From IMG/VR virus record IMGVR_UViG_3300025435_001056, positions 32,001 through 96,000 of that record: a stretch of DNA of 64,000 nucleotides. One strand, written 5' to 3'. The position numbers and the translations under genes are program-made. This document shows, one piece after another, positions 18,877 to 41,125 of the stretch. Below the pieces are notes generated by a model, which worked only from the letters and a program-made list of their open reading frames with translations, was not told the DNA's origin and ran no database searches. Each line of letters starts with the position of its first letter. The first letter of the stretch is position 1. The DNA is from a virus.

Positions 18877-19055
18877 TGGATTATAAAAAACTGTACAACA
18901 TCAAAATGACTATGAGTCCCAAAGACATTATGACTTTTGTATCAGGCTTACATGATGTACAGATGGACATGATCGAAACTGTGGTCATGCGCAAAGAGCG
19001 TGAAGGCTTTCCAGAAGCTTCGGCAGTGATTCAGCACATCATGGAGCTAAAATGA
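18876..19055 (+). CDS. Hypothetical protein
   Basis: TAATG coupling; GAGG SD. Confidence 0.6.
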   Translation: MDYKKLYNIKMTMSPKDIMTFVSGLHDVQMDMIETVVMRKEREGFPEASAVIQHIMELK

Positions 19056-28255: not shown

Positions 28256-30191
<1,936 letters not shown>

Positions 30192-30213
30192 TTGATAGAT
30201 TAAACAAATCTAT

Positions 30214-30289
30214 TATAAATAATAGTGTGGATGCCGATGGTCGGGTCCACACTATGTCACTTCGTTTATTTTAAAGGAGAAAAACTATG
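30214..30289 (+). promoter_or_regulatory. Late promoter plus ROSE-like RNA thermometer leader, copy 2
   Basis: TATAAATA; hairpin ATAGTGTGGA..TCCACACTAT; CTTCGTTTA pairs with TAAAGGAG. Confidence 0.7.
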
Positions 30290-30727
30290 ACAAGACTTAC
30301 AACTATGGATCTCAATCCATTCTATCGCAATTCTGTTGGCATAGATCGATTATTTGATCGTTTGATGCACCAAGTAGACACTGCCAGCTCAACTAACTAT
30401 CCGCCTTATAACATCTTAAAAACTGGAGACAACAGTTATAAGATTGAAATTGCTGTGGCTGGATTTACACAAGGTGAAGTTACCGTCAGTGTAAACGAAG
30501 GCAACTTAGTGGTCACTGGAGAAAAAGCCGACACTGCATTACCTCAAAGTGTTACCTACGAACATCAAGGTATTAGTGCCCGTCGTTTCCTGCGCTCATT
30601 TACCTTGGCCGACTATGTGGAAGTAACCGATGCTGTCAGCCGAGATGGTATTTTAACTATCACTCTTGAGCGCCAGCTTCCTGAAGCAATGAAGCCTAAA
30701 ACCATTGCGATCTCATATGAATCGTAA
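30287..30727 (+). CDS. Small heat-shock protein (Hsp20/IbpA-like)
   Basis: NYPPYNI, IEIAVAGF, HQGISARRF.RSF.L, DGILTI.L. Confidence 0.95.
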   Translation: MTRLTTMDLNPFYRNSVGIDRLFDRLMHQVDTASSTNYPPYNILKTGDNSYKIEIAVAGFTQGEVTVSVNEGNLVVTGEKADTALPQSVTYEHQGISARRFLRSFTLADYVEVTDAVSRDGILTITLERQLPEAMKPKTIAISYES

Positions 30728-37790: not shown

Positions 37791-38089
37791 TGGATTTTAT
37801 TTTTGTAGGTGCAACCAATGCTTGGCAATACATTAGAAACGATTGGCAAAGCAACCGTGTACGTTTTTGTGCCGAAGTGTTTGCCTGGGCCTGTAGTGTT
37901 ACAAGTGCCGTGATATTTGCGGTCACGGTGCCCAATATTCCGGTGGCGCCACTTTATACCATTTTCATCTCGGGCTGTTGTGCCAGTTGCTGGGCTTGTT
38001 GGACTCGACGCAGTTTTGGCTTGATGGCCAATTCTGCGTTTTTGGTCACAATTGATGGAATCGGTTTGATCCGATTCTTATTGCATTAG
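37790..38089 (+). CDS. Small three-TM membrane protein
   Basis: Hydrophobic segments; TAATG coupling. Confidence 0.7.
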   Translation: MDFIFVGATNAWQYIRNDWQSNRVRFCAEVFAWACSVTSAVIFAVTVPNIPVAPLYTIFISGCCASCWACWTRRSFGLMANSAFLVTIDGIGLIRFLLH

Positions 38090-38307
38090 GCCTTGGGAGC
38101 CTTGGGAGTTCTAGGCTTGCGTGTCGCTTTTGGCTTGTCTGCAACTACTGATTTTGCCTTGGTAGCAGGCTTTTTAGTTGGTTTAGGCGCTGGAAATGGC
38201 AGAGCTGGTTCGCTAACTGCTGTTTCCACAGGTGTTTCTACCTTGTAAGGTGCCGTAGCCAGTGGCTCTTGTCCAATTCCTAATAATCTTTTAATATGCT
38301 TTAGCAT
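38086..38307 (-). CDS. Small basic Lys/Ala/Pro-rich protein with amphipathic N-terminus
   Basis: AAGGAG SD; TAAATA at 38327-38332 (minus strand). Confidence 0.75.
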   Translation of the reverse strand: MLKHIKRLLGIGQEPLATAPYKVETPVETAVSEPALPFPAPKPTKKPATKAKSVVADKPKATRKPRTPKAPKA

Positions 38308-38437
38308 GGTATATCTCCTTGTATATTATTTACCGAATTGACACAGGTGTCATTAAACTTTAATATTATTGCGGCGTCGCAATGATAAATATCTCAGTAG
38401 AAACCATGAGATTCTACACAATCAAAGGAGACACAAA

Positions 38438-38602
38438 ATGTCAACAGTATTCAAACGTATCAAAGAGTTTTTTAGTCTAACGGGTAGCGTAAGCCGCGAC
38501 CTAGAATCTTACATTGCCAGTAAGAATCCACAATCAATCAATGATGTAGAGCGTCTAACTAAACTCTACATGACCGGTGGTGTATGCAGGAGAATTGTAT
38601 AA
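38438..38602 (+). CDS. DUF3563-like small protein
   Basis: LESYIASKNPQSINDVERL motif; AAGGAG SD. Confidence 0.55.
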   Translation: MSTVFKRIKEFFSLTGSVSRDLESYIASKNPQSINDVERLTKLYMTGGVCRRIV

Positions 38603-38691
38603 TGTTATTGTTAATTTCAAAAGTTGCAGAATTTTTAAGTAAGTATGCGGCCAAAACCAGCCGTCACGAATCATACCTAGGAGGCCTATAA
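38602..38691 (+). CDS. 29-aa micropeptide absent from the ORF track
   Basis: TAATG coupling and AGGAG SD; MLLLISKVAEFLSKYAAKTSRHESYLGGL. Confidence 0.55.
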   Translation: MLLLISKVAEFLSKYAAKTSRHESYLGGL

Positions 38692-38783
38692 TGCGCGAAT
38701 TTATCAAAGAAATTATCGAGGCTTGGCAAGAAGCACGACAGGCTTATGTAAAAGCACACATGGTAGATGGCCACTGGCTCTAA
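38691..38783 (+). CDS. 30-aa micropeptide absent from the ORF track
   Basis: TAATG coupling and AGGAGG SD; MREFIKEIIEAWQEARQAYVKAHMVDGHWL. Confidence 0.6.
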   Translation: MREFIKEIIEAWQEARQAYVKAHMVDGHWL

Positions 38784-38784
38784 C

Positions 38785-39339
38785 ATGATTACTACTCAAT
38801 TCCTCCCAGTTCAGGACTATTACAAGTTCCAAGGCTGGCTGGAACAGCAGGATGAAGAGACCCGCCAGTTATACTTTGGTATAGCTGGCAGTCAGCATCT
38901 AATTCAGTCCTTGGTAGAACGCATAGTAGAAACGCCTTGTGGGCACCACTTCCTGGTGGCCAAATCTGGCGAAAATTGGGTAGGCACCATACACATTGCC
39001 GCACATGCTGACTCTGTTGAGTTTGGCGTGATTGTGGGTGCTAAACATCGTGGACAGGGCATAGCTGGTCGCATGATGGACGAGGCCTTGATCTGGGCTC
39101 GAAACCGCGGTTACAAAAAACTGTACATGCATTGCCTGGGGTGGAACAAGCCCATACAGCACCTGTGTCAAAAACACGGGTTACAAACCACCAACATGCT
39201 GGGCGATACTGAAGCTGAACTGGCTTTACCACCGGCTACCTGGTACACAGTCAACCATGAATATATGACTAAGATAAAGTCTTTTTATCAAGCCTGGTGG
39301 AAAAATACTAGTATGTTATACCAAGAAATCTACAGCTAA
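38785..39339 (+). CDS. GNAT acetyltransferase
   Basis: V...HRGQGIAG.MM..A..WARNRG; N..IQHL..KHG. Confidence 0.88.
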   Translation: MITTQFLPVQDYYKFQGWLEQQDEETRQLYFGIAGSQHLIQSLVERIVETPCGHHFLVAKSGENWVGTIHIAAHADSVEFGVIVGAKHRGQGIAGRMMDEALIWARNRGYKKLYMHCLGWNKPIQHLCQKHGLQTTNMLGDTEAELALPPATWYTVNHEYMTKIKSFYQAWWKNTSMLYQEIYS

Positions 39340-39347
39340 GTAACTGT

Positions 39348-40058
39348 ATGAACATAATCGTCGCCACCATGGTGATGACACACATCACCATAATGTGCGT
39401 CACCCTATACTTGCATCGCAGTCAAGCACATAGAGGGGTTACTTTTAACCCCGTCATAGCACACGCCATGCGTTTTTGGCTTTGGCTTACAACTGGCATG
39501 GTTACCCAAGAATGGGTAGCCACGCATCGTAAACATCACAGATACACCGAAGAATCCGGAGACCCACATAGTCCACATGTGTCGGGTTTTTGGACGGTAA
39601 TGATCAAAGGTGCCCTGCTATATAAACGGGCTGCCAAAGACCGTGCTATGATCCAGGCCTACGGCACCGGAACGCCCATGGACTGGATTGAGCGTAATTT
39701 ATATTCCAAATACACAGTCTTGGGCATACATTTCATGCTGATCATAGACCTGTACCTGTTCCAGCTATGGGGTCTGGTGGTCTGGGGCATACAGATGTTG
39801 TGGATTCCGTTTTGGGCAGCGGGAGTTGTTAATGGTTTGGGTCATTGGTGGGGATATCGCAATACCGATACCGCCGATCAAAGCCGTAACATATCACCCG
39901 TTGGCATCATAATTGGCGGTGAAGAACTGCACAACAATCATCATGCCGAGCCTGGCAATCCAAGACTCAGCAGAAAATGGTGGGAATTTGATATTGGGTG
40001 GATGTATATTACCATCTTGCGCTGGTTGGGGTTGGCCACCATACGAGCAGAAATTTAG
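39348..40058 (+). CDS. Membrane fatty-acid (acyl-CoA delta-9-type) desaturase
   Basis: His boxes HRSQAH, HRKHH and HNNHH; DPHSP; WEFDIGW. Confidence 0.93.
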   Translation: MNIIVATMVMTHITIMCVTLYLHRSQAHRGVTFNPVIAHAMRFWLWLTTGMVTQEWVATHRKHHRYTEESGDPHSPHVSGFWTVMIKGALLYKRAAKDRAMIQAYGTGTPMDWIERNLYSKYTVLGIHFMLIIDLYLFQLWGLVVWGIQMLWIPFWAAGVVNGLGHWWGYRNTDTADQSRNISPVGIIIGGEELHNNHHAEPGNPRLSRKWWEFDIGWMYITILRWLGLATIRAEI

Positions 40059-40145
40059 CCAAAATCCGTAGGAAAATGTGCGGTCGCACAATATAATACT
40101 AAATAATATTGTTGCAGTACAGCAATTTAACCCAAGGAGAAAACC

Positions 40146-40385
40146 ATGTTTCAATTTAAATCTGTAGTAGACCAAGTAGCACAAGTTTCCAAAATGCCTT
40201 TGACCTTTGTTGAAGACAAGACCTTACGCGGCAGCTTAGAAGCTGTAGTTGACGCTCAAACCAAATTTGTAAAAAGTTTTTACGATACCAATTTGGATTT
40301 GGCCAAACAAGCTGTTGAAAAAGCCAAAGAATACGATTATTCCAAGCCATTTGCTGAATTAGCGTCTGAATTTTTGGTCAAATAA
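40146..40385 (+). CDS. Phasin-like amphipathic helical protein
   Basis: All-helical, VDAQTKFVK pattern, strong SD, own promoter and terminator. Confidence 0.5.
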   Translation: MFQFKSVVDQVAQVSKMPLTFVEDKTLRGSLEAVVDAQTKFVKSFYDTNLDLAKQAVEKAKEYDYSKPFAELASEFLVK

Positions 40386-40438
40386 TAGTAACATATCCTG
40401 TATGCCTCTCTAAAGAAGCACACTTTATAGGATCTTCG

Positions 40439-40460
40439 AGCCCGGGCAACCGGGCTTTTT
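40439..40460 (+). terminator. Rho-independent terminator
   Basis: AGCCCGG-GCAA-CCGGGCT followed by TTTT. Confidence 0.9.
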
Positions 40461-40546
40461 CTTGCTCAAAACTATGTAGCCATAAATAGTTGTAGAAAAT
40501 TATAGTTCTTGCTATAATATATGTAGTTAATAACACTGTTGAGATT

Positions 40547-41125
40547 ATGGCCCTACTTCCCGAAACAGATACCTCTGAAAAAGATCACTCCAAGCTCTTG
40601 CAAGATGCTGGCATGTATGTTTTCATGGACGAAGTTACGGATGAAACCATCAAGCCTATTATTGAATGGATCCTGGTTGAGAACCATGTGACCAAGAAAA
40701 AGAAAAAAGAATTGTTGTTAATGATTTGCAGTGAAGGTGGAAGTGTAGAAGATGCCTTTGCCTTGATCGATGTGATGAAGAGCAGTGCCATTCCAATCAA
40801 GACTGTGGGATTGGGTTGTATCGCTTCGTCGGGTCTTATGATATTCTTATCTGGCACAAAAGGTCGACGCTACTTGACCCCCAACACATCAATCATGAGT
40901 CATCAGTACAGTCACTATGCTGATGGCAAGCATCACGAATTGTTTGCCATGCAAAAAGAACACAACTTGATTCAAAAACGCATGTTGCTACACTATCGTG
41001 AATCAACCGGCCTGGACGAGGCCACTATCATGACCAAGTTGTTGCCAGCATCAGACCAGTATCTGTCGGCAGAAGAGGCTCTTGAGCTACACATCTGCGA
41101 TGCCATTTCAGATTTGAAACGATAA
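40547..41125 (+). CDS. Divergent ClpP-family protease
   Basis: SEGGSV, IASSG (Ser), MSHQ (His), DQYLSAEEA (Asp). Confidence 0.85.
   Translation: MALLPETDTSEKDHSKLLQDAGMYVFMDEVTDETIKPIIEWILVENHVTKKKKKELLLMICSEGGSVEDAFALIDVMKSSAIPIKTVGLGCIASSGLMIFLSGTKGRRYLTPNTSIMSHQYSHYADGKHHELFAMQKEHNLIQKRMLLHYRESTGLDEATIMTKLLPASDQYLSAEEALELHICDAISDLKR

Follow-up and report, generated by a model that had tools for sequence, protein, structure and literature searches.

The window analysed here is a 64,000-nucleotide stretch (positions 32001-96000) of the 176,632-bp IMG/VR record IMGVR_UViG_3300025435_001056, whose source is an uncultured giant T4-like lake phage. Two promoter regions in this window carry operator-like TGC..GCA palindromes over the core promoter or the expected transcription start, and these sites resemble the operators of PhaR/PhbF, the regulators of phasin genes in proteobacteria that store polyhydroxybutyrate (PHB). 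We call P1 the promoter region before an operon for a 54-amino-acid (54-aa) protein, two micropeptides, a GNAT acetyltransferase and a DesA-type desaturase, and P2 the promoter region before the gene of a 79-aa protein. Host PhaR may control both promoters, which would form a two-promoter regulon wired to the PHB-granule sensor of the host; we regard this reading of the sequence as evenly balanced, and the evidence for it is better across the phage family than in this window taken alone. The elements of the two promoter regions are as follows.

38338-38366, plus strand: P1 sigma70-type promoter TTGACA-17-TAATAT, found by consensus scan
38368-38383, no strand: P1 operator-like perfect palindrome ATTGCG-GCGT-CGCAAT, beginning 2 nt after the -10 box TAATAT
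38385-38391, plus strand: ATAAATA box (TAAATA at 38386-38391), like the T4 late promoter TATAAATA
38397-38417, plus strand: leader hairpin GUAGAA..UUCUAC, conserved in sequence in relatives and weak (-4.5 kcal/mol, z -0.2)
40069-40097, plus strand: P2 sigma70-like promoter TAGGAA-17-TATAAT, read from the sequence
40077-40090, no strand: perfect palindrome TGTGCG-GT-CGCACA (TGC-N4-GCA) in the 17-bp spacer of P2
40100-40105, plus strand: TAAATA box, read from the sequence
40108-40126, no strand: near-canonical operator-like element ATTGTTG-CAGTA-CAGCAAT, with one T/C mismatch between the arms

The three palindromes and both TAAATA boxes had been proposed in an earlier reading of the sequence (the original prediction), and all of them were read directly at the positions given there. 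That reading had also seen none of these sites at the other promoters it checked, and this holds across the full 176,632-bp record, in which TGCG..CGCA or TTGC..GCAA palindromes adjoining a promoter occur only at 38369, 40079 and 40112. The core promoter or the expected start (taken from the promoter sequence) is overlapped by sites at both P1 and P2; the 40108 element lies about 10 nt after the P2 -10 box TATAAT, just past TAAATA, and over or just after the expected transcription start. P2 was missing from the consensus promoter scan, as its -35 box matches at only 3 of 6 positions; in other relatives this box reads TTGCAA or TTGCAT. The position of the ATAAATA box and the T4 kinship of the phage suggest a late-promoter function, for which counts are no guide, since ATAAATA shows no excess in the window, with 11 copies where 13.8 would be expected. 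Two other promoter types were rejected: a sigma54 promoter (TGGCAC-N5-TTGC), for which the GG element is missing, and a T4 MotA box (TGCTT at about -30), as TGCTT is found only in the relative L014 and its spacing to the -10 box is wrong.

Two side observations belong to these promoter elements. A further perfect palindrome, TGACAC-AG-GTGTCA at 38339-38352, yields -35-like boxes on both strands, TTGACA on the plus and ATGACA on the minus, for the divergent promoters between the operon and a 73-aa gene on its other side. At 30190-30290 of the window, an ATAAATA box has a different AT-rich palindrome (ATAGATT-AAACA-AATCTAT) upstream and a leader hairpin with the core GCCGATGGTCGGG downstream; the same core is present in the 79-aa gene leaders of L009, L012, L013 and L016 and absent from P2 of the window.

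To place the palindromes, we compared them with the characterised bacterial sites. The PhbF site of Herbaspirillum seropedicae, TG[N]TGC[N]3GCAA, came from MEME and was confirmed by DNase I footprint, phaP1 being repressed (PMC3206438). For PhaR of Bradyrhizobium diazoefficiens, the consensus is TGCRNYGCASMA, footprints were reported at phaP1 (TGCGTCGCACAA and TGCGACGCACAA) and at phaP4 (TGCGCTGCACAA), TGCAGTGCAGCA is the listed PhaR site of phaZ3, and DNA binding is abolished by PHB in vitro (PMC6201568). Two of the three sites in the window come within one mismatch of this consensus, in each case in the middle triplet: the minus strand of 38370-38381 reads TGCGACGCCGCA (TGC-GAC-GCC-GCA), and 40113-40124 reads TGCAGTACAGCA (TGC-AGT-ACA-GCA), which is also one mismatch from the phaZ3 site. 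The third, 40079-40091 (TGCGGTCGCACAA), equals the first of the two phaP1 footprints with one G added, giving N4 spacing (cf. PMC6201568). Counted over the 64-kb window, TGCRNYGCASMA with at most one mismatch was found 9 times against 20.9 +/- 4.8 expected, two of the nine lying in P1 and P2. All 100 shuffles have at least nine such matches, so the window holds fewer than the shuffles; the scarcity could mean avoidance of PhaR-like sites outside the two promoters, or it could be an effect of codon usage.

As a bacterial control, we took the roughly 270 nt that precede each of 37 true Phasin_2 genes in Burkholderiales genomes; a phasin match was obtained in 72 of 121 genomes, a tally that includes the unpublished G031, on which no locus or operator statistic rests. 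TGC-N3-GCA was found at 6.7 per kb upstream of the 37 genes versus 0.76 per kb elsewhere in the same loci. N4 spacing was not enriched (0.20 per kb upstream versus 0.73 elsewhere), and N6 spacing was (2.75 versus 0.52 per kb), apparently due to the many sites reading TGC-NNN-GCA-GCA. The form T[GA]NTGC-N3-GCA stands within 260 nt upstream of all but one (L128) of the 37 phasin genes, often in two copies about 57 bp apart. A symmetrised weight matrix was then built only from the sites at these genes. With this matrix, 40108-40126 ranked first of the 176,614 positions of the record (14.2 bits), 38368-38383 ranked 13th (6.1 bits) and the 40077 palindrome 531st (-4.1 bits). A search of this record and of four related phage records, among which one is 100% complete, gave no match to the PhaR DNA-binding domain PF07879, and any PhaR acting here would therefore be that of the host.

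The relatives were drawn from ENA, JGI and IMG/VR metagenome assemblies. In the complete 357-kb relative G126, the two best of 356,847 positions by the bacterial matrix are the promoter of the 79-aa gene, orthologous to P2 (rank 1, 21.0 bits), and the promoter of a micropeptide-GNAT operon, orthologous to P1 (rank 2, 17.2 bits). The exact PhbF form TG[N]TGC[N]3GCAA stands upstream of the 79-aa gene in L005-L008 (TGTTGCGTTGCAA), L009/L010 (TGTTGCAATGCAA), L014 (TGTTGCTTTGCAA) and L016 (TGTTGCAGTGCAA), and the site of L002/L003 departs from it at the last base only (GCAC); exact N3 sites are present in L005-L010, L014, L016, L168, L170 and L173. Where the window has its 40077 palindrome, most relatives have a canonical N3 operator. 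The relatives have these sites either within the spacer (17 bp) of a TTGCAA/TAGGAA-17-TATAAT promoter or over the -35 box of a TTGCnn-17-TATACT promoter, and the P1-type promoter keeps its site in L002, L008, L009, L013, L020 and G126. Co-conservation of the palindromes in related phages had been put forward as a check on the original prediction, and it speaks in favour of it, the sites being kept at both orthologous promoters.

The association extends beyond close relatives. Among five distant members of the 79-aa family (23-38% identity, different neighbours), the operator is the best matrix match of the locus in four, at 13-24 bits and 61-95 nt upstream of the start codon; the fifth, L172, has no operator and a plain sigma70 promoter. 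The link between gene and operator is thus old and has been maintained. L172, together with the fact that every site in the window is off-consensus, would fit sites that are relics or chance occurrences with no present role, carried for example with a promoter captured from a host phasin gene. We consider this improbable, since the operator persists at two promoters and across proteins of such low identity with unrelated flanking DNA, and since the promoter has been rebuilt around the site, which lies in the spacer or over the -35 box depending on the relative and is kept all the same.

The relatives also bear on the idea that the palindromes act as RNA or DNA hairpins (5′ stabilisers or terminators) and not as protein-binding sites. 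The location of 40108-40126 at or just after the expected transcript start suits a hairpin, the mismatch between its arms would be a G-U pair, and the short palindromes fold better than shuffles (z -2.9 for 40075-40092, z -2.6 for 38366-38385). Against this, the leader fold of 40108-40126 is weak (-5.2 kcal/mol, z -1.0; 32 of 200 shuffles at least as good), relatives keep the left half-site T(A/G)TTGC while its partner becomes ACAACAA and no longer forms the stem, two of the palindromes (40077 and 38368) precede promoter elements or sit within them, and a search of 38000-40600 against Rfam returned no family. We hold the hairpin explanation to be very improbable.

Several observations weigh against control by host PhaR. 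There is no exact N3 consensus site in the window, its sites being N4 or one-mismatch N3. The perfect 40077 palindrome has the N4 spacing that is not enriched at bacterial phasin genes, besides its -4.1 bits, and the 38368 site reached just 6.1 bits. As the region had been picked for its TGC..GCA palindromes, a high score with a TGC..GCA matrix is partly circular in the window alone, and independent weight therefore comes from the relatives. In these, N4 variants recur (L004, L009 at P1, L012, L017 and L020), so that they are not assembly errors; nothing corresponds to them at bacterial phasin genes, and their reader would be either a PhaR that tolerates N4 spacing or some other factor. Furthermore, the 79-aa protein is not demonstrably a phasin; it is a small amphipathic helical protein without an assigned function. 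It is mainly because of the N4 variants that our confidence in the PhaR reading is moderate. Of the PhaR-type operators named in the original prediction, the 40108 and 38368 elements are placed in the bacterial phasin-operator class by their first and 13th ranks, each one mismatch short of the exact consensus; its leading example, the 40077 palindrome, is not supported as a PhaR site by spacing, rank or score, and the best-scoring site is the one it had listed second.

If another factor reads these sites, it would be a different dimeric regulator, encoded by either the phage or the host, with only convergence or ancestry behind the resemblance to PhaR operators. The two perfect palindromes of the window have TGCGG..TCGCA in common as their core, and a central CG sets them apart; neither has an N3 spacer, theirs being N4 and N6, and N4 is found at P1 and/or P2 of the five relatives just named, yet is unenriched at bacterial phasin genes. 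This alternative is nonetheless unlikely in our judgement: most relatives carry at these positions exact N3 sites identical to bacterial phasin-gene operators, the N6 sites read TGC-N3-(A/G)C(A/C)-GCA and so differ at a single base from TGCAGTGCAGCA, the form common in bacteria, and no candidate phage regulator was identified.

Each of the two promoter regions combines a sigma70-type core with a box of the ATAAATA type and with TGC..GCA sites that resemble operators and cover the spacer or the start. Under the PhaR reading, free PhaR would occupy these sites in a host low in PHB and so keep the host RNA polymerase out; where PHB is plentiful, PhaR would be drawn onto the granules and the phage genes would be transcribed. 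The products would be the small amphipathic helical protein, three tiny proteins, an acetyltransferase and a phospholipid desaturase, which may act on the surfaces of granules or membrane lipids. As the sites of the window are off-consensus (N4, or N3 with one mismatch), control may be weaker or retuned here.

The genes in question, together with the divergent gene and the terminator, are the following.

38086-38307, minus strand: open reading frame of the 73-aa protein with a Lys/Pro/Ala-rich tail, divergent from P1
38438-38602, plus strand: 54-aa protein of no known family (open reading frame, found in relatives)
38602-38691, plus strand: 29-aa micropeptide, its start overlapping the preceding stop (TAATG)
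38691-38783, plus strand: 30-aa micropeptide, its start overlapping the preceding stop (TAATG)
38785-39339, plus strand: GNAT acetyltransferase, 184 aa (PF00583, E 1.7e-13; phrog_1249)
39348-40058, plus strand: DesA-family membrane fatty-acid desaturase, short form, 236 aa (PF00487, NF049918)
40146-40385, plus strand: 79-aa three-helix protein of a small-protein family, with its own promoter P2
40438-40457, plus strand: intrinsic terminator with an 8-bp stem (6 G-C pairs) followed by a T run

The 79-aa protein had been called phasin-like, a label that remains unproven. In the AlphaFold2 model (mean predicted local distance difference test score 86.9), the protein is amphipathic and all-helical, with helices at residues 2-21, 25-62 and 66-78. 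The family to which it belongs comes from phage and metagenome contigs and forms 52 clusters at 50% identity. An exhaustive profile search gave 52 proteins at E<=1e-3, among which there was no typical phasin; 50 of them are 63-108 aa long, and the two others, of 161 and 409 aa, match in repeated short stretches. The protein of the window had no match to Phasin_2 (PF09361, gathering threshold 24.9 bits), and the best relative, P0021, stayed below the threshold with 21.7 bits (E 2.4e-4). Phasin_2 matched 6 of 54 family members at E<=0.05 and was the only Pfam family recurring in more than two members, all of these matches being sub-threshold. When the family was aligned with the 37 true phasins by hhalign, the score was 19.6 (P 0.013) and the reversed controls scored 19.5 and 18.6; this was therefore not counted as support for a phasin. 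Protein language-model neighbours include clusters of Phasin_2, PHB_acc and PHA_synth_III_E (PhaE) at 0.81-0.86, a lead only. A sequence search of the PDB with the family profile gave nothing below E 1, and neither Foldseek against the PDB nor the Atlas shape search returned an informative match to the fold.

Regarding the remaining genes, the order and the terminator were found as originally described. The 54-aa protein had been labelled DUF3563-like, a label that we rejected: it has no Pfam match at E<=1, PF12086 was without a match at E<=10 across five phage records (the present one and four relatives), and its only relatives are close ones on metagenome contigs, none with a Pfam domain. 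Judged by sequence conservation, both micropeptides are real genes, as had been proposed; they are also called as genes in other assemblies, and their differences to relatives are mostly synonymous (8 synonymous versus 4 non-synonymous codon differences between the 30-aa peptide and that of L014). The acetyltransferase and desaturase assignments were likewise borne out, the GNAT domain with 51.3 bits against a cut-off of 20.7 and the desaturase with PF00487 (E 3.8e-16, 60.1 bits against a cut-off of 29.7), the DesA family NF049918 (E 1.8e-118; 396 bits, the cut-off being 400; match over positions 9-240 of the 385-position profile) and the histidine boxes HRSQAH, HRKHH and HNNHH. Nothing ties the GNAT or the DesA-type desaturase to polyhydroxyalkanoate (PHA) itself.

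The nearest bacterial relatives of the desaturase, at 55-63% identity, are scattered among Burkholderiales, other Gammaproteobacteria and Gemmatimonadota, and no host was assigned from them. The three best matches lie on short contigs of metagenome-assembled genomes. These three (L022, L023 and L039; 63-73%) are labelled Bacteroidetes, Haliscomenobacter and Bacteriovoracaceae and are probably mis-binned phage contigs. The 73-aa protein had no Pfam, PHROG or NCBIfam match, and a small gene is conserved at its position in relatives. Its tail runs ..PKPTKKPATKAK..KPKATRKPRTPKAPKA, and this Lys/Pro/Ala-rich stretch resembles the tails with which PhaF and PhaM, two granule proteins, bind DNA in the manner of histone H1.

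The 176.6-kb record has an estimated completeness of 51% and a G+C content of about 44%. Relatives reach 357 kb and carry the T4-type major capsid protein Gp23 (E 5e-99), and the phage of the window is therefore a T4-like jumbo phage; phages in GenBank gave neither a DNA nor a protein match. The module has a mosaic make-up: L014 and the window share 94% identity in the 79-aa protein, whereas their 54-aa genes agree in the encoded residue at only 25 of 55 codons; L018 has an additional nucleotidyltransferase/cupin gene 3′ of the desaturase, L012 is without the desaturase and L013 without the GNAT. The common early promoter of the phage, GGTTGACC-N17-TATAAT, is highly repeated and differs from the palindromic sites of P1 and P2. 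At least five near-identical copies of this early-type promoter (GGTTGACC(A/C)AAAAT(A/G)CC..-TATAAT), followed by a similar leader and AAGGAG, were seen in the record, at record positions 19014, 50363, 76881, 78687 and 115691, with 18363, 44881 and 46687 of the window among these.

The arrangement is like the PhaR/PhbF-phaP circuit of PHB-storing proteobacteria, described for PhbF of H. seropedicae and PhaR of Ralstonia eutropha (PMC3206438) and for PhaR of B. diazoefficiens (PMC6201568), in having TGC-N3-GCA-type sites with T-rich/TG flanks over the -35 box, the -10 box or the start, often two per promoter, and in the small amphipathic helical protein encoded downstream. Unlike in that circuit, it is a T4-like jumbo phage of lytic type that carries the promoters, no phaR domain having been found in the phage records searched, and the second promoter drives non-phasin genes (micropeptides, GNAT and DesA-type desaturase). 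The P2 sites are about 33 bp apart, versus about 57 bp between the paired bacterial sites, and the window sites are N4 or one-mismatch. The phage product also has 79 aa and is not a provable phasin, whereas bacterial phasins have about 170-200 aa. Phages are also linked to host PHA metabolism in PHA-producing cultures, where their contigs carry auxiliary metabolic genes that serve PHA synthesis, such as phaC and phbB (PMC12013262); those are enzyme genes by annotation, whereas the link here would be regulatory, with no PHA enzyme encoded. The desaturase has the three histidine boxes of the Pseudomonas-type DesA aerobic phospholipid desaturase (NF049918), but at 236 aa it is without the last ~145 profile positions, and its score lies just below the cut-off. 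We found no publication that proposes PHB-sensor operators on phage promoters.

More tentatively, an entire lineage of T4-like freshwater jumbo phages might read the PHB of the host through PhaR and so switch on a regulon of a protein peculiar to phages that acts at granule or lipid surfaces, micropeptides, an acetyltransferase and a desaturase for the remodelling of storage or membrane lipids in replication, the N4 and one-mismatch sites being operators tuned to shift the threshold of the switch. Phages carry metabolic genes; a lytic phage that places genes of its own under the stored-carbon sensor of its host would, if the PhaR reading is true, be a different kind of link, in which the virus gauges the nutrition of the cell before committing certain functions. 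It would moreover inform on the host range, as only a PhaR-bearing, PHB-storing proteobacterium could then serve as host, and it would hint at a function for a small-protein family that is widespread on phage and metagenome contigs.

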